Positions 10,033 through 34,382 of a stretch of DNA of 64,000 nt are shown piece by piece. The DNA comes from an uncultured bacterium. Lineage in GTDB: Bacteria; Patescibacteriota; Minisyncoccia; CAIUEV01. Position 1 is the first letter of the stretch. Every line of letters begins with the position of its first letter. Both the position numbers and the translations under genes were made by a program. The stretch spans positions 78,969 to 142,968 of the forward strand of contig CALFZX010000016.1 of assembly GCA_937952315.1 (NCBI GenBank), read 5' to 3'. The notes under the pieces were generated by a model. It was not told the DNA's origin. It worked only from the letters and a program-made list of their open reading frames with translations, and did not search any database.

Positions 10033-11304
10033 ATGGAAAATAAAAAAATAAAGGTAATTACTGCCGATTGGGAAAGACCTGAAGCGTTTTTGCTTTCGGA
10101 CTATATTGTCGGCGGTGGTTTCTCCGTACTAAAAAAAATCATCAAAGGAGAAATTTCCGTCGCTGATGTGATCGAAGAATTGGAGCAGAGCGGATTAAGA
10201 GGGCGCGGGGGATCCGGCTTCCTCTTAGGGCTTAAATGGAAATTGGGACGGGAATATTCTCTGTCGGCCAAAAAATTTATTTTTCCGGCTCGATCCTCGG
10301 CCTATTTTATTTGTAATGCCGACGAGTCGGAGCCGGGAACTTATAAAGATCGTGCTATTTTGGAAAATAATCCCTATCCGGTTTTTGAGTCTATTATTGT
10401 CGGTTCTTATATTCTAGGAGCCAGCGAATCGTTTATTTATCTTAACGGGAACTACAAAGAAACGGCGGTTAAACTGAAGAAAACTATTTCGGAGCTAAAA
10501 AAGGCCGGCTGGTTGGGAAAAAATATTCAAGGAAGTGATTTTTCTTTAAAGATAAAGCTTTTTCAAGGAGCGGGTAGCTATGTCTGCGGAGAAGAGACGG
10601 CTTTAATCAACTCAATTGAAGGTAAAAGAGGCGAACCGAGGTTAAGACCTCCCTATCCGGTCGAGTCCGGTCTTTTCGGCCGTCCAACAGTGGTAAATAA
10701 TGTTGAAACATTAGCTAGCGTGCCATTCATTCTTCAGCACGGAGCGAGTAAATTTAAGAGTTTAAGCCGAAGCCAAGAAAGTTTTGGCACCAAGATCTTT
10801 TTACTGAACGGTCCGGTGAAAAAGCCAGGTCTTCATGAAGCGCCTCTGGGAATTACGATTAAAAAACTGATAGAGAAATTCGGAGGTGGCTTAAATACGA
10901 ATAAAAAAATAAAATTTGCTCAGGTTGGCGGATCCGGCGGGTCAATAATTATGCCTTCCGATTTTGATAAGCCGCTCGGTTTTTCCAAGGAGGAGATCCC
11001 GGCCGGTTCAGGTGCGATCCTCTTGGTTGAAGAAGGCTTCGATGTTCGAAAATTGATTTCTGCTTGGTCTGGTTTCTTTCGACGAGAATCGTGTGGCCAA
11101 TGTGTGCCTTGTCGAGAAGGGACTTATCAACTTTCGCTTTTGGCACAAAAATTGGCCAAAGGAAAACTCAATAAGAACGATCAAGAGAAGATTAAAGATA
11201 TTATTTTTACGATGGAAAGAGCTTCTTTTTGCGCCTTTGGAAATTTTGCGGTAAAGGGTTGGAAGGGAGTAATGGATAATTTAGTCGATGAGATTATCGA
11301 ATAA
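10033..11304 (+). CDS. NADH dehydrogenase 51-kDa flavoprotein subunit homolog (NuoF/HydB-like).
   Basis: GLRGRGGSGF, CNADESEPGTYKDR, the FMN site GAGSYVCGEETALINSIEG, and the [4Fe-4S] site ESCGQCVPCREG. No nuoE or nuoG partner is adjacent. Confidence 0.8.
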   Translation: MENKKIKVITADWERPEAFLLSDYIVGGGFSVLKKIIKGEISVADVIEELEQSGLRGRGGSGFLLGLKWKLGREYSLSAKKFIFPARSSAYFICNADESEPGTYKDRAILENNPYPVFESIIVGSYILGASESFIYLNGNYKETAVKLKKTISELKKAGWLGKNIQGSDFSLKIKLFQGAGSYVCGEETALINSIEGKRGEPRLRPPYPVESGLFGRPTVVNNVETLASVPFILQHGASKFKSLSRSQESFGTKIFLLNGPVKKPGLHEAPLGITIKKLIEKFGGGLNTNKKIKFAQVGGSGGSIIMPSDFDKPLGFSKEEIPAGSGAILLVEEGFDVRKLISAWSGFFRRESCGQCVPCREGTYQLSLLAQKLAKGKLNKNDQEKIKDIIFTMERASFCAFGNFAVKGWKGVMDNLVDEIIE

Positions 11305-11313
11305 AGTTTTAAG

Positions 11314-11766
11314 ATGGCAACACTATTAAGAAATAAAAGGGCTCTGTTTGACTATGAAATCCTGGAAACTTTTCGAGCCGGGATTTTTTTGGCGGGTAAA
11401 GAGGTCAAGTCGCTTAAAAACAAAAGAGGCAGACTGGAGGGATCGTATGCGCATATCCAGCGAGAAGAGCTTTATTTGATCAATTTTTCTATTCCGGTTT
11501 ATCAACCTAAGAATGTTCTAGGACAAGTGGAAAGTGATCGAACGCGAAAAATATTGCTCAGAAAAAAAGAAATAAAATCATTGATTGGAAAGATAAAAGA
11601 AAAGAAATTGACCCTCCTACCACTGAGAATTTTTACCGCCAAGGGAAAAATAAAAATTGAATTGGGATTGGGCAAAGGGAAAAGAAAAATTGACAAAAGA
11701 GAGACTATTAAGAAAAGAGAAAGCGACATTGAGATGGAAAGGGCAATGAAAAAATTAGCTTTTTAA
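11314..11766 (+). CDS. smpB: SsrA-binding protein SmpB.
   Basis: LFDYEILETFRAGIFLAGKEVKSLK...GSYAHI...LLLRKKEI. 150 aa with a basic C-terminal tail. Confidence 0.9.
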   Translation: MATLLRNKRALFDYEILETFRAGIFLAGKEVKSLKNKRGRLEGSYAHIQREELYLINFSIPVYQPKNVLGQVESDRTRKILLRKKEIKSLIGKIKEKKLTLLPLRIFTAKGKIKIELGLGKGKRKIDKRETIKKRESDIEMERAMKKLAF

Positions 11767-11788: not shown

Positions 11789-12928
11789 TTATTGTCTTTT
11801 ACATTTACCACCGGTGAAATTCTCTCCCGGCGGGCATTTGCACAAGCTACCGTCTTTAGTCCAATGACCTCCGGAATCTTCACACTTGGAGCGGGTTGTC
11901 ACCCCGCTATTATTTTTTTTGACAGGAGTGGAAGTCACCGGTTTTGTGGTTTTCGGTTGAGGAGCCGGTTCGTCTTCTTTTTTCACGGCAGAGCTTGTGG
12001 CTGTTTGATTATTAGTGTTTTCATTTTTTTCCGCTCCTACGGAAATAGATTCTTGATTGTCGAGATTGACATTTTGATTCTCGTTTTTAGTGTTGATATT
12101 GCTGTTTCCTTCTGGATTGGAATTTTCGTTAGCGGGATTGGCGTCTATCGGAGGAGTATCGGCAACTTCTACGGGTTCGGCCGGCTTATCTTCGGAGGAA
12201 GAAAAAGAATCCCTGAGAGGAGAAGTGAAATCTTTCTCTTCAAAAGCTACCACTTTTTTTTCTAACGGATTGATAATAATTTTTTCGTTCTCCCCCGCCT
12301 CTTGAGAACTCTTATCTTTATAGTTAACTTTCACCTTTCCTTTAAAAACATAAATCGTGCTATCTTTCTCCTCTACTTTAACAACTAAATCGGTTCCCAG
12401 GACGGAGATCTCGCCATCGCTTAAAATTATTTTAAAAGCTTTTCTTTTATCATTCTTTTCAACTAAATAGCGGACTTCTCCATCGGTTTGGGACCAAGAA
12501 ATTTCCCCTTGATTTTTAAGGAGAATCAGTCGGGCGAAATTACCCATAGTTATTGTGCTACCGTCATTGGAACTTATCTTAGCCTTTCCGTCGGCCAAAG
12601 TTCTCATTTCATAAGCGATTTTTCCTTCCAAGGGCAGTTTTTCCGGCTCCATCCATGAATTTTGGCTACTGTCTCTATACTCAAGCCCTCCCTCTTTTTC
12701 GGTAACTTTTACAGGGTATTCTTCCCCCAGAGAACTAAAATAAAAGCTAAGACCGAATCCGCCGGCGGCTAAAATAATCAAATACAAAAACCAACGAAGT
12801 GACTTTCGTTGATTCAAGGCCGTACGATTGTTGGTCTGATTTGGATAAGAATAGGGGCTATAAGCGTTAATCATTTTTAAGCTTTTAGAAAAAAATATAA
12901 AGCAATTAAGATTTTCCGCTTGTATCAA
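11789..12928 (-). CDS. Membrane-anchored protein with a FecR-like beta domain and a Cys-rich C-terminus.
   Basis: One TM helix after about 45 cytoplasmic residues. FecR-like strands (EISVLGTDLVVKVEEKDSTIYVFKGKVKV). A low-complexity N/E/Q-rich linker, and 4 Cys in the last 35 aa. Confidence 0.4.
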   Translation of the reverse strand: MIQAENLNCFIFFSKSLKMINAYSPYSYPNQTNNRTALNQRKSLRWFLYLIILAAGGFGLSFYFSSLGEEYPVKVTEKEGGLEYRDSSQNSWMEPEKLPLEGKIAYEMRTLADGKAKISSNDGSTITMGNFARLILLKNQGEISWSQTDGEVRYLVEKNDKRKAFKIILSDGEISVLGTDLVVKVEEKDSTIYVFKGKVKVNYKDKSSQEAGENEKIIINPLEKKVVAFEEKDFTSPLRDSFSSSEDKPAEPVEVADTPPIDANPANENSNPEGNSNINTKNENQNVNLDNQESISVGAEKNENTNNQTATSSAVKKEDEPAPQPKTTKPVTSTPVKKNNSGVTTRSKCEDSGGHWTKDGSLCKCPPGENFTGGKCKRQ

Positions 12929-13316
12929 GAGTCTCTGCCAAATTTTCTATTTCCGAAGCCGATAAGCCTTTTTTGACTACCATGACTAGATCGTCCTTTG
13001 AATTCTTTGAAATCTGAGCATTCTTGGGAAAAATTTTCTCAAGCCTTCTCCAAATATAAAGCTTGGGCTTAGAAAGATAAAGTAATACGCTACCGCAAAA
13101 AGCTACCAAGCTTTGGTTGTAGGGACGAACAAAAGCAAAAGACGCGGAAATCCCCATGATTATAATTCCGACAAAAACAAAAACCTGAAATTCGATCAGC
13201 TTCCAAAGAAGCAAGCAAATCCCTCCCCCACCGCCAAGCCAGCCAAGTTGCTTGACGGTAAGGGGGCCAACTATTCTATCTTCAATATCGACATCTTTGG
13301 GAACTTTGAATCTCAT
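12906..13316 (-). CDS. PrgI-family protein (Gram-positive conjugation/T4SS VirB3-like component).
   Basis: N-terminus MRFKVPKDVDIEDRIVGPLTVKQLGWLGGGG followed by two TM helices matches the PrgI-family signature (KVPxDV...IxGPLTxKQ). 136 aa. Confidence 0.55.
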   Translation of the reverse strand: MRFKVPKDVDIEDRIVGPLTVKQLGWLGGGGGICLLLWKLIEFQVFVFVGIIIMGISASFAFVRPYNQSLVAFCGSVLLYLSKPKLYIWRRLEKIFPKNAQISKNSKDDLVMVVKKGLSASEIENLAETLDTSGKS

Positions 13317-13368
13317 GGATTTTTTATTTTTAATTTTTGCTCATACTTGCTTGGCTCAAAAAGCTTTT

Positions 13369-14043
13369 CTACTGTTGAGGCTTGTTCTCTTCAGGGGCTT
13401 TGCCACTAGCTTGTTCCTGCTTGTATCTGGTTATGGCATCTGTTACTTTTGAATCGTTTTTAAGATCCTCGACAAAAACCACCTGATCTTTGTTGATCAT
13501 CATTCTGTCTTCCGGACCGTGGAGTTCATTGCCAAGCTTGACTAAGGAAAGCTCGGTTTTTTGTTCTTGCTGTTTAGCAGTGTTCGTGTTATCGTTATCG
13601 TTTCCTTCCGATTGTTGCAAAACCGGTTTAACTTGTAGGTAGTAGATGTCGGAGAGTCCAATGTAAGAAGGGTCATGAAAATCAATTCTACCGAAGTAGA
13701 CTTGACCGTTTGTTAAAAAAACAGCTTGATATTTTGCTGGGTCTATCTTCATTGAATCGTTGCCCGATCCGCCGGTGACAATCTTTTCTCTTTCGATTAT
13801 TCTTTCGCCACCAACTCCGTTCGTCCCCTTCATTTCTTTAACAATCATGAAGACGATACCGGCTACGACGGCCAAACCGATCAAAATTACCAAGCCCCAA
13901 AGAACGCCTTTTTTACCTTCACCGTTGGATCGAGAGCTTCTTCTGGGGGCAACATCCCAATCGTCATCTTCTCTCGGACGACGACTTTCTCCAGTTCTTT
14001 CCAGAAAGGAGTCAATCTTATGATCTTTTTCTTCGTTTCTCAT
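13369..14043 (-). CDS. Hypothetical single-pass membrane protein.
   Basis: The ORF track gives 13369..14145, but the likely start is the MRNEEKD Met at 14043, which avoids overlap with the upstream gene. TM helix VLWGLVILIGLAVVAGIVFMIV, followed by an extracytoplasmic domain. Confidence 0.4.
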   Translation of the reverse strand: MRNEEKDHKIDSFLERTGESRRPREDDDWDVAPRRSSRSNGEGKKGVLWGLVILIGLAVVAGIVFMIVKEMKGTNGVGGERIIEREKIVTGGSGNDSMKIDPAKYQAVFLTNGQVYFGRIDFHDPSYIGLSDIYYLQVKPVLQQSEGNDNDNTNTAKQQEQKTELSLVKLGNELHGPEDRMMINKDQVVFVEDLKNDSKVTDAITRYKQEQASGKAPEENKPQQ

Positions 14044-14129
14044 TTTTTTTGATTTTTTAATTATTAAAAATGAAAGAACTCTGATAAACATTTTAAGCGA
14101 TTTTTTTGAAAAACAAAATTTAGCTAATT

Positions 14130-14717
14130 TTATTCGATACAACAATCTATAGCTTTTCTTAGCAGTTCTCTTAATTTCAATTTAAATCCGACCGGTTTTT
14201 TATCGTGTTTATTTAGAGCCGAGGCGGGAATTTTTTTTATGGCAGTACCTTTTTGGGTATTTTCCGCCATTGTTTTCTTAATGTCATTTGTGCCGATGAG
14301 TTTCATATTTAAAGCCCAGAACATTCCGTAAAGATCGTAAGCCTTATGAAAAAGATCTCTCGCATCTTCTTTATTCCCCATCCCTTGCTGTTTGGTGCCT
14401 ACTTCCATCAAGCGCATGGAGGCGGCTAAAAGATGCTTAGAAATACACCAAACTTCACCTTCGTATTCTTTAATGATTTTTTTGAGCAATTCGCCTCTCA
14501 TTTTTCTAACTTCCTGCAATAAATCAAAATATTCGTCTTTGCCGGTTTTTTCAGCGGTAAAAAAGAAATGCTCCTCAATGCTGATTAGATTCATGATTGC
14601 AATACTCAAATCTTGATCGGAAGAAAGATCCATTTTATCTTTTTTCTTCATCTCGTCTATTCTTTCGACAAATTTATTTAAGTTCTCGATCGGTCCCTTT
14701 TTTATATTTTCATTCAT
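14130..14717 (-). CDS. Hypothetical cytoplasmic protein.
   Basis: 195-aa ORF, helical and charged, with no recognised motif. Confidence 0.35.
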   Translation of the reverse strand: MNENIKKGPIENLNKFVERIDEMKKKDKMDLSSDQDLSIAIMNLISIEEHFFFTAEKTGKDEYFDLLQEVRKMRGELLKKIIKEYEGEVWCISKHLLAASMRLMEVGTKQQGMGNKEDARDLFHKAYDLYGMFWALNMKLIGTNDIKKTMAENTQKGTAIKKIPASALNKHDKKPVGFKLKLRELLRKAIDCCIE

Positions 14718-14741: not shown

Positions 14742-16133
14742 TTATTCTTGAAGAGTAATGCCTAGTTCATCTAATTGATCGGGGACAACGACGGTTGGTC
14801 CGTCCATTAGGGGGTCTCTTCCCTCTCCTGTTTTGGGAAAAGCAATGGTTTCTCGAATATTCGGTTCATTTAGCAAGAGCATCATAATCCGGTCAAAGCC
14901 AAAGGCGATTCCCCCGTGAGGCGGAGTGCCCGATCCCAAAGCTTTGAGCATATGAGAAAAATTGTTTTCGATTTTTTCTTTTGAATAACCCATAATTTCA
15001 AAGACTTTTTGGAGAGCCTCGGGATTGTGGTTTCTTAATCCGCCGCCACCGATTTCATAGCCATTTAGAACAATATCGTACTGAGCTGCTTGAATATTTC
15101 CAATATTTTTCTTTTTGGCTAAGTCTTCCATCGAAGATTCTATCGGCGCGGAAAAGGGATTATGAGTGAAAGTCCAGCCGCCATCATCGTCTCTTTCAAA
15201 GAAAGGAAAATCGATTACCCAGCAAAAGGCTAAAAGGTCCGGGTCGGTTTTGTCTTCCCGTAAATCAGGTTTATCGGTCCCGTACTTCTTCATCGCTTCC
15301 TTAAAAGATAATCGGGGGAATGGCTCCGTTTGAATTTTTTTATTTGGAAAAACTGTCTTGACAAAAGCGATTAGCATATCTTCGCTAGTTTGCATTATTT
15401 TTTTTTGGTTTTCAAAACTTGTTTCTACATCAATTTGAGTGAATTCCGGCTGACGATCGCCTCTCGTGTCTTCGTCGCGGAAACAGCGAGCAATTTGAAA
15501 ATACTTTTCAAAACCGGCCGACATCAAGAACTGCTTATACTGTTGAGGTGATTGAGGCAAGGCGTAAAACTTTCCCGGGTCTATTCTTGCCGGCACTAAA
15601 AAATCTCTCGATCCTTCCGGTGTGGATTTGGTAAGACAAGGAGTTTCTATCTCGAGAAATCCGTTTTTCGAATAAAAATTCCTAACGAATTGCAAAGCTT
15701 CGTGTCTTTTAACCATATTATTTTTCATTCTTTCTCGGCGCAGATCAATATAGCGAAAACGCAAACGGATTTCCTCACTCACCTCTTTGCCGTCTCCCTC
15801 AACTTCAAAGGGGGGCGTTTCCGCTTTATTGAGAACGGATATTTGCAAAATTTCCAGTTCGATGTCACCGTTAAACTTGTCTTTCTGAACGGCTCTTTCC
15901 GGTCGAGGGTTGACTTTTCCTCTCACTTCCACTACCCATTCGGGGCGAACCTCCGAGCCTGTCGCATGCGCTTCATTGTTATTAGGCAAAATTACTCCTT
16001 GGACTTTGCCGGAGAAATCTCGAAAATCAAGAAAAATCAATTTTCCTTGATCTCTTCTAACATCGATCCAAGCGCTTATTTTTACTTCTTTCCCCAATGA
16101 TTCTTTAAGTTTTGCAATCGGAGTTCTTTCCAT
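14742..16133 (-). CDS. aspS: Aspartate--tRNA ligase (compact form lacking the GAD insertion).
   Basis: Class II motif 2 FRDEDTRGDRQPEFTQIDVE and motif 3 GGIAFGFDRIMMLL. QSPQQYKQFLMSAGFEKYFQIARCF matches bacterial AspRS. It is 463 aa, versus about 590 for typical bacterial AspRS. Confidence 0.85.
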   Translation of the reverse strand: MERTPIAKLKESLGKEVKISAWIDVRRDQGKLIFLDFRDFSGKVQGVILPNNNEAHATGSEVRPEWVVEVRGKVNPRPERAVQKDKFNGDIELEILQISVLNKAETPPFEVEGDGKEVSEEIRLRFRYIDLRRERMKNNMVKRHEALQFVRNFYSKNGFLEIETPCLTKSTPEGSRDFLVPARIDPGKFYALPQSPQQYKQFLMSAGFEKYFQIARCFRDEDTRGDRQPEFTQIDVETSFENQKKIMQTSEDMLIAFVKTVFPNKKIQTEPFPRLSFKEAMKKYGTDKPDLREDKTDPDLLAFCWVIDFPFFERDDDGGWTFTHNPFSAPIESSMEDLAKKKNIGNIQAAQYDIVLNGYEIGGGGLRNHNPEALQKVFEIMGYSKEKIENNFSHMLKALGSGTPPHGGIAFGFDRIMMLLLNEPNIRETIAFPKTGEGRDPLMDGPTVVVPDQLDELGITLQE

Positions 16134-26532: not shown

Positions 26533-28338
26533 TTATTTTTTGAATTTGAATTTATAGGGATAATGTTTAGTGTGTAGCAGTTTTTCCGCTTTGCGACTCA
26601 ACGGACGATAAAGAAAATCTCGATAAACTTGCTCTACCACCGGATTTTTATGAGATTCGCGAATGGCCATTTGCTTATCCGTATCATAAATGGCTTTAAT
26701 CCTAGCTTTTCTGATCGTATCATCTGTCGGTATCGGCTGTCCCCCGCCACCGATGCATCCACCCGGGCAAGCCATAATCTCAACAAAATCGTAAGGGCAT
26801 TTTTCTTTTAGCACTTTCTCCACTATTTTTCTGGCGTTTTCCAGTCCGTGAGCCACCGCTATTCGGATCTCTTTGCCGGCCAAATTTATGCTTGCTTCTT
26901 TTATCCATTTTATACCACGAACTTCTGAAAATTCCAATCGCGGAAAACTTTTTCCCGTTAAATAAAAATGAGCGGTTCTTAGGGCGGATTCGGTTACTCC
27001 TCCACTGGCGCCGAAAATAAGACCGGATCCGGAGGGTACTCCCAGCGCGGGATCAAAATCCGAGTCGGGCAATTCATTGAAGGGAATGCGAAAATTCTTA
27101 ATCAAATGGGCCAGTTCTCTCGTAGTGAGAACAAAATCAATATCTTTTTGGCCGTTATTACAAAATTCTCGACGATCAATTTCGTATTTTTTGGCAGTGC
27201 AGGGCATTATTGAAACAACCACAATTTTTTTCGGATTGAGACCGTTTTTTTTGGCATAATAATTTCTAATTAAGGAAGCTAACATAAGTTGAGGTGATTT
27301 TGCGGAAGAAAGATGAGGGAGAATAGCGGGATAGTGTTGCTCTGCAAAAAGCACCCAGGCCGGACAACAGCTGGTAAAAAGAGGTAAATGACAACTGCTA
27401 TTTTTATTTTTGACTATTTCCAAAAATTCGGAACCTTCTTCGACAATGGTAAAATCGGCGCCCGTGACTACATCAAAAATCGTATCGAAGCCGCATTTTC
27501 GGAGAGCGGTAACCATTTTACCGGTAACGACGGTGCCGGGCATAAGTCCGAACTCTTCCCCCAGGGTGACTCTAACTGAAGGAGCGACTTGAGCGATAAC
27601 AATTTTGTCCGGGTCTTTAATAGCCCTGACGACATCGACTAAATTACTTTTTTCTATAATGGCGCCGGTTGGGCAATGGAGAGCGCATTGTCCACAAAAA
27701 GTACACTCCAAGGGCGTGTAATTTTCAGTTCCGATGCCTAAATTGATACCTCTTTTTTGAGTGTTCAGAGCTTTAACCTTTTGAATTTCGTCACAAGCTT
27801 TAACACAGCGACGACATTCAATGCATTTCGTGCTTTCTCTGGCGATAGAAGGGTTTTCTCGATCAATAACTCGACGACTTAAGTTGTCTCGCAATCGTTC
27901 AAGAGCTTCTTCGCTTTTCATCTCGGCGACTTTCGGAACGAATCTAAACTCGTCAATCGAATATTTAACGGCTAAATCTTGGAGTTCGCAATCTTGATTA
28001 CGAAAACAGGTGGAACAAAGTCCGGCGTGCTCCATAAAGAGCATTTCCAAGAGAGTATTTCTGATTTTTGAAATATCTCCGTCGTCTGTTATAATTTCCA
28101 TCCCTTCCATTGTTTTAACAGAGCAACTGGGCACAAATTTAAAATCTTCATTTTCTCCAAAGCGAATTTTCACAAGACAAATTCGGCAATAAGCATTACT
28201 TTTTTCGAAATCGGGATGAGAGCAGAGAGTGGGAATTTCGAATCCGTTATCTTCCAGAAAATCAATTAAGCCGATGCCGATTTTTGACTCAAAAAATTTA
28301 CCGTTAACTTTGATTTTTGTTTTCTTTTTAATCTCCAT
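26533..28338 (-). CDS. [FeFe]-hydrogenase catalytic subunit (HydA-type, with N-terminal 2Fe-2S and 4Fe-4S ferredoxin domains).
   Basis: H-cluster signatures L1 FTSCCPAWV, L2 IMPCTAKKYE and L3 EIMACPGGCIGGGGQP. An N-terminal plant-type ferredoxin fold, and two 4Fe-4S motifs (CIECRRCVKACD, CTFCGQCALHCP). Confidence 0.85.
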   Translation of the reverse strand: MEIKKKTKIKVNGKFFESKIGIGLIDFLEDNGFEIPTLCSHPDFEKSNAYCRICLVKIRFGENEDFKFVPSCSVKTMEGMEIITDDGDISKIRNTLLEMLFMEHAGLCSTCFRNQDCELQDLAVKYSIDEFRFVPKVAEMKSEEALERLRDNLSRRVIDRENPSIARESTKCIECRRCVKACDEIQKVKALNTQKRGINLGIGTENYTPLECTFCGQCALHCPTGAIIEKSNLVDVVRAIKDPDKIVIAQVAPSVRVTLGEEFGLMPGTVVTGKMVTALRKCGFDTIFDVVTGADFTIVEEGSEFLEIVKNKNSSCHLPLFTSCCPAWVLFAEQHYPAILPHLSSAKSPQLMLASLIRNYYAKKNGLNPKKIVVVSIMPCTAKKYEIDRREFCNNGQKDIDFVLTTRELAHLIKNFRIPFNELPDSDFDPALGVPSGSGLIFGASGGVTESALRTAHFYLTGKSFPRLEFSEVRGIKWIKEASINLAGKEIRIAVAHGLENARKIVEKVLKEKCPYDFVEIMACPGGCIGGGGQPIPTDDTIRKARIKAIYDTDKQMAIRESHKNPVVEQVYRDFLYRPLSRKAEKLLHTKHYPYKFKFKK

Positions 28339-28350
28339 TTTTTTCTATGA

Positions 28351-29073
28351 TTAAGGCACTATTGTTTTCTCCGCTTCTTCGCTTTCATCCGACTCCTCTT
28401 CGAGTAAAGCTTCTTCTTCCTCAAGGGAGTCCAGCTCCTCCTCTGTCATCTTCTCTTCAGAATCAACCATTTCCGCCAGATAGTCTATTTTTGTCCATTT
28501 ATCATTAGTTTCATTGTAGCCGTATTCTTCGTAATAATAATCGAAAAATTTATCTTCTCCGCTGATCAGTTGCCAATCCTCCTCGCCCTCTTTATATTTA
28601 GCTAACTCTTTAAGTTTCGGTGCGTCACCGGAAAAATCTTCCACTTGATAGAGTGCTTTCATCCCACCAATTTCCGACTCGCTAGGAAAAATTTCCAAAT
28701 AAACAAAAGTGTTGCCAACAAAAGAAATGCCGGCGCTTGATATATCCCACTTATCATTTTTTGGCGGGAAAATCAATGTGTCCAGATTCTTTATTAAATA
28801 AGCGATTACCTTTTGTCTTTTATTTTCATCGGGTAATTCGTCAAGTTTTTTTTCTTCCTCCAGCGGTTCGGTGTCCTCTATCTCCACTTCTTCCGCATCG
28901 GCCTTGGATTGATCGGCCTGATTTTCCGACGGTGTTTGAAGCGATGGATTCTCTTGGTCTATCGGTTTATCTTGATTTTTATTTTTTACAGAATAGCCGA
29001 GCATTGCGAGACCGATGATCAAAACCGAAGCGCCGACCGACCAATAGATTTTTGAATTTTTAATTTTTTGCAT
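28351..29073 (-). CDS. Hypothetical membrane-anchored acidic protein.
   Basis: An N-terminal TM segment, a central domain, and a highly acidic E/D-rich C-terminus. Confidence 0.4.
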   Translation of the reverse strand: MQKIKNSKIYWSVGASVLIIGLAMLGYSVKNKNQDKPIDQENPSLQTPSENQADQSKADAEEVEIEDTEPLEEEKKLDELPDENKRQKVIAYLIKNLDTLIFPPKNDKWDISSAGISFVGNTFVYLEIFPSESEIGGMKALYQVEDFSGDAPKLKELAKYKEGEEDWQLISGEDKFFDYYYEEYGYNETNDKWTKIDYLAEMVDSEEKMTEEELDSLEEEEALLEEESDESEEAEKTIVP

Positions 29074-29100: not shown

Positions 29101-30879
29101 CTAATCGAATTGTCTTTCCACCTCGTCTCTTTTTTTTCGTAAAAAATCGATCCAAGCTTCAAAAGCTCTGATAATAAATTTAAACGGGGCCTCTACCAAG
29201 AAATCTAAAATGAAAATAAAGACATTGATACGAGAAAACTTGACAGAAAGAAGACGACCAATGCGGACGAACGGCAGGAGAGCGGTATCGAAAATAAGAC
29301 TGAAAATACCTTCTTTATCCTTTGTGACTACCAAATCACGAGTTGATTGTCTGATTAAGGCGCCAAAAAAACTGACCGTACCGGTAAAAATAAGGAAGAT
29401 TAGGGTGGCGACAATGTTAAAATTCAAATAGCCGAGCAATTTTATCAGAAGATAAAGCACTGTAAAGAGCACTGTGATGTAAAATAAATCAAGCATCCTT
29501 TCCGCCCAAGCGCTCTCTCGGTCGGAGATATTTATCGTTTTTAGCTCCTCTTCCAGCTTTGCTCGATAAACGAGAGTGCTGACGCCTTTTAAAATTTCTT
29601 TGGTGTTTTCTTCGTCCGGTTTTCGGGCGGAAGAGGCGATCAAGCTTAGTAAGATCGGTGGAAAAAAGAGATTGATTGCAAGTGATTTGTATTCTATTGA
29701 TTTTGCTTTGAGCATCATTTCGTAGGGGACTTCCAAGAGTATGGCTACTATCATTTTCGTTAAAAAAACATAGAGAATCCCGCGACCGATTCTTTTTTTC
29801 AGTTTTTTGCTTTCCGCCAAGTAACGCAAATTGCATTTGTTTTTAACTTTATCCCAGAGCAGGTATTCTTGAAGGGTAACGGCGCGCGCCTCGGCCGGAT
29901 TGTCCATCACGGCTTCGTAGAAAAAAGCGGAGCAGAGCATATATTTTTTAATCGGGAAAAGAATTTTTGGCATCAAAGGATGCTCGGCGATAACTTCCAT
30001 TTCAAATCTCTTTCTTTTTAACAATTTTATGGCTTCTAAAATTTCATTTTCATTTTGTTCTTTCAGGCTGGTCCATTTGGGAAAATAAATATTGAAAACC
30101 AAGAACCTGATCATGGCGCGATCCGATTTTCGCAGATTACGGAAAACGGCCAAGTAAATTAGCAGATTTAGCAGTTTTTTTTCATCGAAAAAACAATTTT
30201 TTTGAGAAGCTTTTTTCTGCTCTCCCATTATAGAATTTTCAATCGGTTCGACTAGTGATCCAACGCCCAAATATTCTTCCGCTAAATTTTGAACCCCCTT
30301 GATTTTTGAGCCCGGTAGAGGGAACGGAGGACGACTTAAGTTGAACTTGATTTTTGGTCTTAAAGTCTCATAAATAGCATAAATTAGGGCCATTTTTTCT
30401 TTCTGAGGATTGATTTGGTTCTCGATCTCCTCAGAGGCTAAGGAAAAAAACCACCGTCTAATTTTTAAATTTTCAGTGGCACTTTTTATTCGGCTGTTAA
30501 TAATTTGCAAAGCTTTGAGGTATCGAGCGATTATGTTTTCTACTTTTTCAAACAGCTCGTCATTGGCGTCAGACTGATTGATGTGTCCGGCCATAACTAA
30601 TTCTTTGAAAAGCGCATAAGCCAGATCTCGTTTGGTTTTTCTTTGTTCGATGTCCACCAGTCTTTTTAGGATGCGATAAATGGTGGTTCTACGAAGTAAG
30701 TGCTCCTCTTTGTATTGGACGGCACTTCTAACTTTTTCATACCATAAAGCCATTTGACCGGCAATTTCAGAAGTTTCCATTCTAAAAATGGTCTGCCTGG
30801 AGGTATTTTTCTCTTGAGCCGTCTTTTCCACGACTTCAAGAAAATATTCAACGGAAGGATTAATAATTTCTTTTGTCAT
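29101..30879 (-). CDS. Large hypothetical protein: a cytoplasmic N-terminal domain of about 440 aa plus a C-terminal multi-TM region.
   Basis: 592-aa ORF with no recognisable catalytic motif. Four or more hydrophobic helices in the last 150 aa. Confidence 0.4.
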   Translation of the reverse strand: MTKEIINPSVEYFLEVVEKTAQEKNTSRQTIFRMETSEIAGQMALWYEKVRSAVQYKEEHLLRRTTIYRILKRLVDIEQRKTKRDLAYALFKELVMAGHINQSDANDELFEKVENIIARYLKALQIINSRIKSATENLKIRRWFFSLASEEIENQINPQKEKMALIYAIYETLRPKIKFNLSRPPFPLPGSKIKGVQNLAEEYLGVGSLVEPIENSIMGEQKKASQKNCFFDEKKLLNLLIYLAVFRNLRKSDRAMIRFLVFNIYFPKWTSLKEQNENEILEAIKLLKRKRFEMEVIAEHPLMPKILFPIKKYMLCSAFFYEAVMDNPAEARAVTLQEYLLWDKVKNKCNLRYLAESKKLKKRIGRGILYVFLTKMIVAILLEVPYEMMLKAKSIEYKSLAINLFFPPILLSLIASSARKPDEENTKEILKGVSTLVYRAKLEEELKTINISDRESAWAERMLDLFYITVLFTVLYLLIKLLGYLNFNIVATLIFLIFTGTVSFFGALIRQSTRDLVVTKDKEGIFSLIFDTALLPFVRIGRLLSVKFSRINVFIFILDFLVEAPFKFIIRAFEAWIDFLRKKRDEVERQFD

Positions 30880-31040: not shown

Positions 31041-31361
31041 TTATCTACTAAGAGCTTCAATTGCTTCAACTAAGCCTTCTTCCGATTGCAGACCTATTTT
31101 CCGGTCAACTTCTTTGCCGTCGAGAAAAAGCACGATCGTCGGGATAGACATGACTCCGAAGCGAGAGGCGATAGACTGGTTCTCGTCTACATTCAACTTA
31201 TACACTTTGGCTTTGCCTTCAAGCCTTTTGGCCAGTGACTCTAAAATTGGTCCCATGGCTTGACAGGGTCCGCACCAAGGAGCCCAAAAATCAACTATCG
31301 TTACCCCCTTCGATTCGACAACGGATTGATTAAAATCCTTTTCGTTAATTTCCAAAGACAT
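31041..31361 (-). CDS. trxA: Thioredoxin.
   Basis: WAPWCGPCQAMGPILE active site (WCGPC). 106 aa. Confidence 0.9.
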   Translation of the reverse strand: MSLEINEKDFNQSVVESKGVTIVDFWAPWCGPCQAMGPILESLAKRLEGKAKVYKLNVDENQSIASRFGVMSIPTIVLFLDGKEVDRKIGLQSEEGLVEAIEALSR

Positions 31362-31384: not shown

Positions 31385-31741
31385 TCAACCTTTTAATAAA
31401 TCATCTATAGTTAGAACAATAGCGTAGCCCAACAGACCAATGACCAGCCCCACCACTCCGGCCGTTACCGCTTTTTTCGCTCTTTCTATATTTCTATACT
31501 CCCCCTGAGCTGTCAAGTAAAGAATCCCGGCTACAATGAAAGAGATAACCGCCAAAATGCCGAAAATACTGAGCAACCAATTGAGAACTCTCATCAACAC
31601 GGAGGCGATGGGGTGATCTTCTCCCGCACCCGGATCGGGCACTCCGCCTTTTCCCGACCAACCGTCAAAGATGCTTCCGTAGAGAAAGATTTTTCCTTTT
31701 AGTTTATCCGACCAGCGGACTATTTTATCCTTAATCTTCAT
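31385..31741 (-). CDS. VirB2/TrbC-like small membrane protein (pilin-like), paralog 1 of 5.
   Basis: A hydrophilic N-terminal region, then hydrophobic helix 1 (LLSIFGILAVISFIVAGILYLTAQGE), a short charged loop, and hydrophobic helix 2 (AGVVGLVIGLLGYAIVLTI). This is the same architecture as the four upstream paralogs. Confidence 0.45.
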   Translation of the reverse strand: MKIKDKIVRWSDKLKGKIFLYGSIFDGWSGKGGVPDPGAGEDHPIASVLMRVLNWLLSIFGILAVISFIVAGILYLTAQGEYRNIERAKKAVTAGVVGLVIGLLGYAIVLTIDDLLKG

Positions 31742-31767
31742 TTAAGCTGAATTAAAGTATTATTTTT

Positions 31768-32319
31768 TTATTGAACCATGTCGGGAGAAACGGGTAAAGC
31801 TCCTCCGCCCCCCGCTCCCGGACTGTACGGTCTTTGATAGCCACTGGCCGGATCATTCATGTTAACGGGATCTTGAGGAGTGGCCGAATCGTTTCCTCCG
31901 CCGGGACTGCTATCTTGATTCGGGCTGCCAGTATTTACACCGCGACCGGAGACGATAGAATCGATAGTTGAAACAGCGACAAACCCTAAAATTGACACGA
32001 TCACCCCAACTACCGCATAGAGAATGATTTTCTTAGCCTGTTCGATTTTGTCGCTTTCTCCCTGAGAAGTAAGGTAAATAAAGCCACCGTAAATAAAAAT
32101 TATAACGGCCAAAATCCCGATGAAAGTTATGGCCCAGTTGACAACGGAAGTCAAGATGGAAAAAAGGGAGCGATCGGTTAGGCCGGTTACTTTCAGTGAT
32201 CCCGGGTCCCATCCGTCGGCCCCGGCCTCCTTGAATAAAAGAAAAAGCAAACAAATAAAAAATAAAGAAGATATATTAACAATAGATTTTTTAGCTAAAT
32301 TTTTTTTCTCTTTTTCCAT
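31768..32319 (-). CDS. VirB2/TrbC-like small membrane protein, paralog 2 of 5, with a Pro/Gly-rich C-terminal extension.
   Basis: Core AITFIGILAVIIFIYGGFIYLTSQGESDKIEQAKKIILYAVVGVIVSILGFVAVSTI. A 60-aa low-complexity tail (SPNQDSSPGGGNDS...PGAGGGGALP). Confidence 0.45.
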   Translation of the reverse strand: MEKEKKNLAKKSIVNISSLFFICLLFLLFKEAGADGWDPGSLKVTGLTDRSLFSILTSVVNWAITFIGILAVIIFIYGGFIYLTSQGESDKIEQAKKIILYAVVGVIVSILGFVAVSTIDSIVSGRGVNTGSPNQDSSPGGGNDSATPQDPVNMNDPASGYQRPYSPGAGGGGALPVSPDMVQ

Positions 32320-32346
32320 TTGTTTTTTTAAATGTTTTTAAAAATT

Positions 32347-32640
32347 TCAGATGAATAATTTTGCTACAAAAAACAGAAAAATTGATAAAAGAATCATCCC
32401 GAAGGAAAGAAACAATGAATTATGGGCTTGGATCATTCTATCCTCATCGCCCGCTCCCAAAAAATAGGAAAAAAGAGTGATGAAAAGCATAACTGTTCCA
32501 ATGCCACCGACAAAGACAGAAACGGCCAAAAGAAACGGGGAAATAAACTCCGCTCGCGAAGAAGAAGCGGAAATCGAAGGAACACTTACATCCGCTTCTC
32601 TAAAATTATTACCGATAATTTCAAATAAAAAACTGAGCAT
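32347..32640 (-). CDS. VirB2/TrbC-like small membrane protein, divergent paralog 3 of 5.
   Basis: VFVGGIGTVMLFITLFSYFLGAGDEDRMIQAHNSLFLSFGMILLSIFLFFV. Same helix-loop-helix layout, with GxGDE in the loop. Confidence 0.4.
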   Translation of the reverse strand: MLSFLFEIIGNNFREADVSVPSISASSSRAEFISPFLLAVSVFVGGIGTVMLFITLFSYFLGAGDEDRMIQAHNSLFLSFGMILLSIFLFFVAKLFI

Positions 32641-32669
32641 TTAAATTTTTTCTATTTATTTCGCTAAAA

Positions 32670-33017
32670 TTAGGATCCTTGATTACCTTGAGTGATCATC
32701 TGGACAGTGTAGACGGCGACAAAGCCTAACATGGCTACAACCAAACCGACAATAGCGTAGGTCATGGCATTTTTCGCTTTTGTGACTTTTGCTTCGTCAC
32801 CGGCGGCGGTCATATACATAAAACCTGCATAAATAAACATAATAACTCCTAGAACTCCAATTGCCGTGATGGCGAAATTGATAAATTTCAAAGCCATGTC
32901 GAAAATCGATCCTTTGGCTATTCCAGGGGCTTGGCTCGCTACGCTGGTAAGACCCGCCTGAGCTACGGGAACAAATCCCAAGTACTTTCTGGCACTTTTT
33001 TCTTTTTCGTGATTCAT
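32670..33017 (-). CDS. VirB2/TrbC-like small membrane protein, paralog 4 of 5.
   Basis: ITAIGVLGVIMFIYAGFMYMTAAGDEAKVTKAKNAMTYAIVGLVVAMLGFVAV. About 70% identical to paralog 5 over the core. Confidence 0.5.
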   Translation of the reverse strand: MNHEKEKSARKYLGFVPVAQAGLTSVASQAPGIAKGSIFDMALKFINFAITAIGVLGVIMFIYAGFMYMTAAGDEAKVTKAKNAMTYAIVGLVVAMLGFVAVYTVQMITQGNQGS

Positions 33018-33042
33018 TTTTTTTCAATAAATTATTAAAAAA

Positions 33043-33372
33043 TTATTTAGTAATCATATCAATCGTCTTGACGACCACAAATCCCATTAAAGAAACGATT
33101 ATACCTACGATGGCATATGTCATAGTGCTTTTGGCTTTACTGATCTTCGATTCGTCTCCGCTGGCCGTTAAGTACATAAAGCCGGCGTAAATGAAAATTA
33201 TAACAGCCAAGACACCAATAGCGGTAATGGAAAAATCAATAAATTTAGTTGCTATTGTAAAAAAATTACCTCTTGGCATCTCAACATCATCCAAACCATC
33301 ACCAAATCCAGCTTGGGCGATCGGAAATAGCGATAATAGGTTTACAGTCCATTCCTCTCTTTTTGTTTTCAT
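33043..33372 (-). CDS. VirB2/TrbC-like small membrane protein, paralog 5 of 5.
   Basis: Signal-like N-terminus (LLSLFPIAQAGFG), then ITAIGVLAVIIFIYAGFMYLTASGDESKISKAKSTMTYAIVGIIVSLMGFVVV. This matches the VirB2/TrbC pilin two-helix core. Confidence 0.5.
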   Translation of the reverse strand: MKTKREEWTVNLLSLFPIAQAGFGDGLDDVEMPRGNFFTIATKFIDFSITAIGVLAVIIFIYAGFMYLTASGDESKISKAKSTMTYAIVGIIVSLMGFVVVKTIDMITK

Positions 33373-33490: not shown

Positions 33491-33847
33491 CTAAAGTTTC
33501 AAGTCACTAACTACTTCGTCAATTTCACGATTGCTGTTCTCTTCTGAGGGTTTTTCCTCTCGAACAGTGTCCTTGTCCTCTCTTCTTGGTCGGCGACCAC
33601 CTTCTGGCTCGCTAATCTTTAAGTTCACTCGAGCATTGTTTCGTGCTCCCACCACTCGAAGAAGAGTTCTTAAAGCTTTGGCCGTGCTTCCGTCTCGACC
33701 AATAACCATTCCCATGTCCTCGGGATGAACGCTGAGAGTCACTAAAACTCCCATTTCGTCGACTCTTCTTTCCGCTTTTACTTCTTCCGGGTGGTCGACG
33801 ATGGATTTAACCACGAACTCCACAAATTCGGCGTCTTTCGGTGTCAT
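33491..33847 (-). CDS. KH-domain RNA-binding protein (KhpA/YlqC-like).
   Basis: VIGRDGSTAKALRTLLRVVGARNNARVNLKI matches the KH GXXG core of the KhpA family. A charged C-terminal tail. Confidence 0.7.
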   Translation of the reverse strand: MTPKDAEFVEFVVKSIVDHPEEVKAERRVDEMGVLVTLSVHPEDMGMVIGRDGSTAKALRTLLRVVGARNNARVNLKISEPEGGRRPRREDKDTVREEKPSEENSNREIDEVVSDLKL

Positions 33848-33929
33848 CTTGTCAAATTTAAGGATTAAATTTATCTGACTTATATAATAAAATTAAATGA
33901 CTATTTTTTACCTGTCAAAATATTTTGGC

Positions 33930-34382
33930 TTATTTTATGAAAACACAGTAAGAATCATTGCCGGCCGGCCCACCCGTGTCGGTATTGGCGCATTGAGTAC
34001 CTTCCAATAAGCAAGTGGCGCATATTCGATAGAGCCCGTAATTTGGCGCCCCGGTGCAATTGCAGGTAGTGCAATTGCAGAGAGTGTAGACCGTCGATCC
34101 GTCTTCTTGATTAGATACATTGTCAATCAATTGAGCGCTTACCAAAGAATTCATCATAGTTGACCAATTATCCATAGTTGGCCAAGTTCCCTTCATCGAA
34201 TAATACATGGAAAGAGACCCTCTGACATTTTCTACATTGGACATTCTCCTAGTGTCTTTTGCGTTCTTCTGTGATCTTGAAAAAGAAGTAATCATAAGAG
34301 CGGTCAGAATACCGATTATTGCGATAACAACGAGCATTTCAATTAGGGTGAACGCTGATTTTTGTTTTTTTGTTTTTGTCAT
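33930..34382 (-). CDS. Type IV pilin/pseudopilin with a Cys-rich C-terminal domain.
   Basis: Class III signal with the N-methylation motif KSAFTLIEMLVVIAIIGILTAL. 8 Cys in the last 50 aa (CNCTTCNCTG...CATC...QC...YC). The gene starts 8 nt after the rpoD stop. Confidence 0.75.
   Translation of the reverse strand: MTKTKKQKSAFTLIEMLVVIAIIGILTALMITSFSRSQKNAKDTRRMSNVENVRGSLSMYYSMKGTWPTMDNWSTMMNSLVSAQLIDNVSNQEDGSTVYTLCNCTTCNCTGAPNYGLYRICATCLLEGTQCANTDTGGPAGNDSYCVFIK

Follow-up and report, generated by a model that had tools for sequence, protein, structure and literature searches.

The 64-kb window analysed here is a housekeeping stretch of the chromosome of a Patescibacteria (candidate phyla radiation, CPR) bacterium of the Moranbacteria type. 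It contains a gene, referred to here as prgI, whose 136-aa product is, by profile match and motif, a genuine member of the PrgI/VirB3 family of type IV secretion system (T4SS) subunits. In our judgement there is about an even chance that prgI encodes the VirB3 of the CPR T4SS, relocated away from its usual partners and accompanied by an accessory protein with a FecR domain. The pairing of PrgI with this FecR-like protein beside smpB is conserved within one Moranbacteria sublineage and appears to be undescribed: the word 'FecR' is absent from the main text of PMC12102498, which treats the CPR T4SS, and a literature search on FecR and CPR returned no mention of FecR among the top-ranked CPR papers. 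None of five metagenome-assembled genome (MAG) accessions with this arrangement was found in the supplement of PMC12102498.

The family assignment of PrgI is supported by several lines of evidence. The protein matched the Pfam PrgI profile PF12666 at 34.6 bits against a gathering cut-off of 27 (E = 2.9e-8), with residues 4-73 aligned to positions 1-74 of the 91 in the profile; TcpE was also matched, below threshold. PF12666 was present in 57 of 58 database homologs, and relatives of the window PrgI already carry the label 'PrgI family protein' in NCBI records. Its N-terminus, MRFKVPKDVDIEDRIVGPLTVKQ, fits a motif that is conserved over 88 unique aligned PrgI sequences, and positions M1, V5, P6, G17, L19, T20 and Q23 are invariant in alignments of both 15 and 39 sequences. 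The motif M.F.VP...DIED.I.GPLT.KQ is common to PrgIs encoded beside VirB4 and to those, like the present one, that are not (hereafter orphans), and within the orphan clade the first 23 residues are 96% conserved. In an AlphaFold (AF2) model built on 39 homologs, residues 21-40 and 43-62 form membrane helices with a per-residue confidence (pLDDT) above 90, and further helices lie at 70-82, 88-95 and 120-133; after the membrane hairpin the model thus has an amphipathic helix, then a stretch that is disordered, and a helix at the C-terminus. The hallmarks given for VirB3 are a mass of 10-15 kDa, two transmembrane (TM) helices, short cytoplasmic ends and a C-terminal alpha-helix (PMC12857230); the window PrgI, at ~15 kDa, has this size and, in the model, this topology. 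An earlier note on this DNA, made from its letters alone, had proposed a PrgI-like gene with a hallmark N-terminus and two TM helices, and the profile match above cut-off, the conserved motif and the modelled hairpin bear this out. Searching solved structures with the PrgI sequence gave no match, and plasmid PrgIs showed no BLAST-level similarity to the window PrgI by tblastn.

The relatives of prgI fall into two types of locus. A GTDB scan of one genome per species identified 407 PrgI loci, the best 80 of which, from 79 genomes, were classified. Type 1 accounts for 75 of these 80 (30-46% identity to the window PrgI) and consists of PrgI, a TraC-like/TrsD protein (PF26593) and VirB4 (DUF87/P-loop_TraG), often followed by a pilin. 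This order agrees with the description of the Patescibacteria T4SS in PMC12102498, and it upholds the earlier statement that PrgI normally sits beside VirB4. In loci L005 and L007 the type-1 cluster lies between ksgA and yidC-rnpA-(rpmH)-dnaA. The remaining five loci (55-86% identity), all from a narrow Moranbacteria sublineage, are of type 2 and share the arrangement of the window: a homolog of the 224-aa protein encoded upstream, PrgI, the FecR-like protein and a convergent smpB. A metagenome scan seeded on the FecR-like protein yielded seven further loci. The three-gene block with smpB is found in 13 distinct loci, with PrgI identity down to 51%; across these, 14-46 nt separate prgI from the FecR-like gene, and the spacing ahead of prgI ranges from -11 to 130 nt. 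The genes 5' of the block vary, being aspS with a gene for a 195-aa protein, a DUF2207 gene with two small genes (166/120-aa), or a divergent ndk, and these upstream flanks have been rearranged at least three times with the block intact. As judged from this gene order, the unit that is conserved comprises three genes, towards which smpB converges. The 195-aa gene lies outside it, since besides the window's strain only a single close relative (L010) was found to carry this gene.

Some type-1 relatives exhibit variations of their own. Three Paceibacterota genomes (L082, L086 and L088) encode PrgI beside TrsD-VirB4 on the opposite strand, in divergent orientation, which is an intermediate degree of uncoupling. 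The MAG JBDRKH01 holds two separate PrgI-TrsD-VirB4 loci (L071 and L073), which could reflect either duplication of the T4SS locus or a bin of mixed strains.

The history of the orphan genes can be read from a neighbour-joining tree of the 88 unique PrgI sequences, 12 of them of type 2. The type-2 PrgIs were monophyletic in 28 of 30 bootstraps and nested among type-1 Moranbacteria PrgIs, with the type-1 group L014/L015/L018 as sister; by this phylogeny, the orphan PrgIs are shown to descend from VirB4-linked ones. Compared with the closest species (L010), non-synonymous differences were 0.088 for PrgI, 0.074 for smpB, 0.126 for the 224-aa protein and 0.230 for the FecR-like protein, with synonymous differences saturated at 0.66-0.79. 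At the level of coding-sequence divergence, this shows an orphan PrgI under strong purifying selection rather than in decay. None of the 79 genomes contained both types: in five an orphan was present with no linked copy seen, and in 74 a linked copy without an orphan. Given plausible MAG completeness, this makes an extra copy unlikely. Because the orphans form one nested clade, do not co-occur with linked copies and evolve about as slowly as SmpB, they are best read as a relocated functional VirB3; the possibility raised in the earlier note, that this gene is the decayed duplicate of a PrgI in a complete locus elsewhere, fails on the same grounds, with no VirB4-linked second copy seen in the five GTDB genomes. 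On the sequence comparisons, relocation of a single virB3 gene is favoured over duplication, not proven.

We considered whether a normal PrgI-TrsD-VirB4 locus might nevertheless exist elsewhere in these genomes, with the window gene a second, specialised copy that, together with the FecR-like protein, might bring the ATPase to an additional site or into a variant machine. Paralogous T4SS parts are common in CPR, as the pilin arrays and the two full loci of JBDRKH01 illustrate, and the co-occurrence scan is of uncertain sensitivity on incomplete MAGs. Against this stand the absence of any co-occurrence, the origin of the orphan clade's sister sequences in other genomes that lack the orphan, and the failure to recover the closer linked sister that duplication within the lineage would predict. 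We regard a second copy of this kind as quite improbable.

Under the explanation we favour, that of a relocated VirB3, the gene would encode the VirB3/PrgI subunit of the Patescibacteria (MPF-FATA-like) T4SS of a Moranbacteria-type bacterium. It would have left a site upstream of trsD-virB4 and become fixed in the three-gene cluster by smpB. Its product would be the only VirB3 of these genomes, would still anchor the TrsD/VirB4 ATPase, encoded elsewhere, to the membrane, and would serve the same machine as a pilin array that is encoded separately. A continuing role as ATPase anchor is suggested because the cytoplasmic motif on the partner-facing side has not changed, the window retains five pilin genes in intact form and 80% of Patescibacteria assemblies have VirB4 (2,417 of 3,035; PMC12102498); the T4SS has probably been kept in this lineage. 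More speculatively, the FecR-like protein could be a lineage-specific accessory whose TM segment or tail contacts PrgI and whose ectodomain senses or binds the host surface, coupling contact to T4SS assembly.

The search for the remaining T4SS components was centred on the window and its surroundings. As the earlier note had it, no virB4 adjoins prgI, and Pfam scans detected no VirB4, TrsD/TraC-like protein, VirB6 or VirD4 among 54 window open reading frames (ORFs), including all large ones. All four were likewise absent from the 10 kb beyond the 3' end of the window, which contain thyA, alaS, rnpA, a class I aminoacyl-tRNA synthetase gene and ribosomal protein genes; extension at the 5' end gave short contigs only. 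When every protein encoded in two VirB4-containing loci of relatives was compared with the window by tblastn, only PrgI and the pilins were matched, and the combination of virB4, trsD and other components within about 20 genes by which Patescibacteria T4SS clusters are recognised was absent from the window, which holds only PrgI and the pilins.

The pilins comprise the VirB2-like array that had been reported 18 kb from prgI. Four of its genes exceed the PF18895 cut-off of 26.6 (29.5-36.7 bits), and a fifth, divergent paralog matches the other four at E = 4e-5; the five are 30-56% identical and have two TM segments each. Of the dispersed, non-canonical T4SS-like or DNA-uptake system that the earlier note had envisaged, the dispersal holds in that the pilins are encoded apart from prgI and VirB4 is not adjacent; being non-canonical is not new as such, and no evidence of DNA uptake was found. 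The array is flanked by a thioredoxin gene and a KhpA-like KH-domain gene, with a type IV pilin-like gene (N_methyl motif) and rpoD following (31041..31361, 33491..34382), which places two kinds of pilin gene, the T4SS_pilin array and a type IV pilin-like gene, next to each other. Also by the array are a 592-aa ORF with five TM segments in its C-terminal half and a 240-aa single-pass ORF, both without a family match; neither matched the T4SS-locus proteins of the relatives by tblastn.

Alternatively, TrsD and VirB4 may have been lost and PrgI exapted as the membrane core of another envelope complex with the FecR-like and perhaps the Sm-like 224-aa protein, for example a surface-signal or adhesion module unrelated to secretion. 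Several observations fit such a loss: neither ATPase-locus gene was seen across the window, the adjoining 10 kb and the flanks (+/-10 kb) of ~12 related loci; five of five GTDB genomes with the orphan have no linked PrgI locus; rnpA is not beside yidC, dnaA or T4SS genes as it is in the linked relatives; about 20% of Patescibacteria assemblies lack VirB4; and PrgI strictly co-occurs with a lineage-specific FecR-like partner. Conversely, the nearly unchanged N-terminal cytoplasmic motif suggests the same conserved cytoplasmic partner, the five T4SS pilin genes in the window remain intact, and the inspected sequence covers little of each genome in this lineage. We know of no role for T4SS pilins without VirB4. 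On balance we consider exaptation unlikely. As a separate observation, rnpA (L101 13935..14294, ~3.4 kb past the 3' end of the window) follows alaS and is not beside yidC-rpmH-dnaA. Because it sits away from yidC/dnaA here, unlike in L005 and L007 with their linked PrgI, this suggests that the origin-proximal region has been rearranged in the lineage of the window.

The gene downstream of prgI encodes a membrane-anchored protein with a FecR domain (PF04773, 46.4 bits, cut-off 24) and a Cys-rich C-terminus, as the earlier note had described. About 25 cytoplasmic residues precede a single TM segment (residues 26-44), which is followed by the extracytoplasmic FecR domain, a low-complexity N/S/E/P-rich linker and a four-Cys tail with the motif TTRSKCE[DN]SGGHW..C.CP...F..G.C, in which C331, C345, C347 and C358 are invariant across the alignment. 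The tail is 58% identical to that of L001 over 41 aa, and the remaining linker is unalignable. By profile comparison the FecR domain weakly matches PDB 4m0n/4m0h ('putative anti-sigma factor'), and the NCBIfam FecR equivalog scored 18.7 bits against a cut-off of 385. The family is tiny: an exhaustive search of 1.84 billion representatives found 8 representative clusters at E<=1e-10 followed by a gap to generic FecR-domain proteins, in agreement with a word-index search that gave 6 close matches, and the clusters (about 8 at 50% identity) come from one Moranbacteria sublineage. In an independent scan, every FecR-family locus that was long enough had PrgI upstream and smpB downstream.

The FecR-like protein evolves ~2.6x faster than PrgI. 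In some orthologs (L001 10429..11799, L003 5203..6627 and L008 10424..11974) there are one or two extra FN3-like modules with the pattern W..GG...W.V.....YP...YR.V......Y.W....YYFRVC, placed before or after the Cys-knot. As far as the aligned sequences go, the ectodomain is modular and variable between species, and the predicted traits are those of an exposed, fast-evolving surface protein, a reading we adopt because of the fast evolution and the FN3-like modules found in some species.

The 224-aa protein encoded upstream of prgI has a charged cytoplasmic N-terminus, one TM segment and a predicted extracytoplasmic barrel and helix. Its homologs form 2,635 clusters across the CPR, including Doudnabacteria and Komeilibacteria, and have no Pfam family; the family is an uncharacterised, strongly conserved Patescibacteria envelope protein with a nearly invariant ectodomain motif (YQAVFLTNGQVYFGK ... 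LVKLGNELHGP.D.M.IN.DQ). In the AF2 model a TM helix at 46-73 leads into a five- to six-strand barrel and a helix, with core pLDDT above 90, and the best PDB matches by Foldseek are Sm/LSm-like (3by7, TM-score 0.76 target-normalised, E = 3.6e-4). Outside the sublineage, its homologs adjoin giant surface proteins, a YkuD transpeptidase or infC-rpmI-rplT, not PrgI. The single-pass membrane protein and the helical cytoplasmic protein that the earlier note placed upstream, neither of known function, are the 224-aa protein and the 195-aa protein, the latter with no TM segment; neither matched Pfam, NCBIfam, PHROG or PADLOC. The 195-aa protein also had no PDB match; it ends in CCIE and shows a weak match to DUF7307 (Pam3 gp33-like, E = 0.045).

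The suggestion that such neighbours are the missing T4SS parts found no support, since the 224-aa protein belongs to a CPR-wide Sm-like family and the 195-aa gene is not conserved. No identity with VirB6, VirB8 or TrbL emerged: the modelled ectodomain of the 224-aa protein is an Sm/LSm-like barrel and not an NTF2 fold, which speaks against a VirB8-like protein, its partner has a FecR domain, and both are single-pass. Homology to the soluble protein encoded just ahead of PrgI in VirB4-linked loci was rejected for the 224-aa protein (hhalign probability 1.4%) and for the FecR-like protein (0.1%), and hidden Markov models of the two families found no member in the 75 VirB4-linked loci.

It is also conceivable that VirB3 simply landed between two envelope genes unrelated to secretion, sharing a transcript with them at most. 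The Sm-like family does occur in unrelated contexts in other CPR, no T4SS-locus protein of the relatives resembles either neighbour, and all type-2 loci come from one narrow lineage in which the order could be inherited rather than selected. What speaks for more than adjacency is that the block has stayed intact through at least three rearrangements of its upstream flanks, that the spacing between prgI and the FecR-like gene stays short and that the FecR-like family was nowhere found without PrgI. We give mere adjacency a slim chance.

The relocated-VirB3 explanation has points that weigh against it. Foldseek comparison of the PrgI model with solved structures matched no solved VirB3. The single-copy argument derives from a pattern-based scan, in which only 2 of 76 linked PrgIs match both patterns, applied to incomplete MAGs. 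The ~250 kb of sequence searched from this lineage, a large share of it from stretches near the cluster that overlap one another, showed no VirB4 or TrsD. Elsewhere the 224-aa family is unlinked to T4SS genes, and its adjacency here may be inherited synteny only; a functional link between PrgI and the FecR-like protein is likewise suggested by gene order only. It is doubtful, in our view, that the FecR-like protein (possibly with the Sm-like protein) is a new T4SS subunit docking PrgI, in a VirB8-type role or as a host-contact sensor, or else that PrgI has been exapted after loss of VirB4.

The coordinates of these genes are collected in Table 1. Four co-oriented genes lie 3' of aspS, encoding the 195-aa protein, a '258-aa' ORF, PrgI and a '379-aa' ORF, and the starts of two of them were corrected. 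The '379-aa' ORF is a longest-ORF call from TTG 12928. We place the start of the FecR-like gene at ATG 12874, 31 nt past the prgI stop, because homolog alignments begin at Met19 of this ORF and contigs of identical sequence, annotated independently, carry a 361-aa gene call; on this evidence the 23-nt overlap with prgI reported earlier is an artefact of the longest-ORF call. Similarly, homolog alignments of the '258-aa' ORF begin at its Met35, giving a 224-aa gene that starts at 14043; the independent calls also give 224 aa, and the database protein P0059 is 100% identical over this length. Promoter and terminator scans gave chance-level results only, tRNA and Rfam scans nothing relevant, and PHROG and PADLOC no match indicating a phage or defence origin.

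The window otherwise encodes dnaG, groEL, ddl, smpB, aspS, ribosomal proteins, rpoD, dnaX, dnaK, ATP synthase and infB, and its nearest named relatives are Candidatus Moranbacteria/Moraniibacteriota MAGs. It also encodes an [FeFe]-hydrogenase. The hydrogenase large subunit and a NuoF-like gene that adjoins smpB are likely parts of one fermentative hydrogenase at split locations.

Table 1. Coordinates of the genes and domains discussed, numbered within the window.
Feature	Coordinates	Strand	Remarks
195-aa gene	14130..14717	-	no TM segment, no family match; outside conserved cluster
224-aa Sm-like membrane protein gene	13369..14043	-	first gene of conserved cluster; corrected start
prgI/virB3 homolog, 136 aa	12906..13316	-	PF12666; N-terminal motif, two TM helices, amphipathic helix, C-terminal helix
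FecR-domain membrane protein gene, 361 aa	11789..12874	-	PF04773; corrected start ATG 12874
FecR (PF04773) domain	12275..12553	-	residues 108-200 of 379-aa ORF; ~90-182 of corrected protein
Cys-rich C-terminal module of FecR-like protein	11792..11899	-	TTRSKCEDSGGHW...C.CPPGENF.GGKC; four invariant Cys
smpB	11314..11766	+	convergent with FecR-like gene; constant neighbour in nearly all loci of this type; PF01668 in relatives
Five T4SS_pilin (VirB2-like) paralogs	31385..33372	-	PF18895; 18 kb from prgI
aspS	14742..16133		
Sigma-70, 422 aa	34391..35659		housekeeping type
NuoF-like (Complex1_51K) gene	10033..11304	+	15 kb from hydrogenase large subunit
[FeFe]-hydrogenase large subunit	26533..28338	-	N-terminal ferredoxin/NuoG-like region
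240-aa ORF	28351..29073	-	
592-aa ORF	29101..30879	-	

The T4SS of Patescibacteria, its MPF-FATA affinity, its pilin arrays and its proximity to dnaA have already been published (PMC12102498, PMC10633639, PMC12857230), and the system is essential for epibiotic growth of Southlakia, the one genetically tractable Patescibacterium (PMC10633639). Only 880 of 1,649 VirB3 homologs lie near virB4, and VirB8 is largely undetected in the phylum (PMC12102498). The cluster described here is a modest, lineage-specific variation on that system, and its scope, one Moranbacteria sublineage, is narrow; it would gain weight only if the FecR-like protein turned out to act in the T4SS as a subunit or sensor. The envelope-spanning parts of the CPR T4SS are largely unidentified. 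With its gene fixed next to prgI, the rapidly evolving FecR-like surface protein offers a concrete candidate subunit, accessory or contact-sensing in role, and annotators are warned that neighbourhood searches centred on virB4 miss parts of these systems.

Compared with known systems, the FecR-like protein resembles FecR/PupR-type anti-sigma factors in having an extracytoplasmic PF04773 domain behind a single N-terminal TM segment. It differs from them in its cytoplasmic portion, where the TM segment is preceded by only about 25 residues, too few for an anti-sigma domain, which takes roughly 80-90, and in its long low-complexity linker, Cys-knot tail and, in orthologs, FN3-like modules. No ECF sigma factor or TonB-dependent transducer gene lies near it, the neighbours being aspS and the genes for the 195-aa protein, the Sm-like protein, PrgI and SmpB; the housekeeping-type sigma-70 is the sole sigma factor found in the window. 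Like VirB8/PrgL, the 224-aa and FecR-like proteins are both bitopic, with a short cytoplasmic tail, one TM segment and an ectodomain, but their ectodomains are an Sm-like barrel and a FecR domain rather than NTF2-like. The window PrgI itself is akin to PrgI of pCF10, VirB3 (TrwM of R388) and TcpE-type subunits in its PF12666 match above cut-off, weaker TcpE match and shared architecture, whereas its gene is not beside virB4 and is co-oriented with a FecR-domain gene 14-46 nt away. With the Patescibacteria T4SS (Quinonero-Coronel et al. 2025, PMC12102498; Wang et al. 2023, PMC10633639) it shares the PrgI family and the VirB2-like pilin arrays, and its relatives at 30-46% identity stand in PrgI-TrsD-VirB4-pilin loci near dnaA. 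It departs from the published arrangement in that prgI occupies a distinct cluster at the side of smpB, with a FecR-domain partner and no VirB4 or TrsD seen in the window and the adjoining 10 kb, and the pilins lie in a third place.

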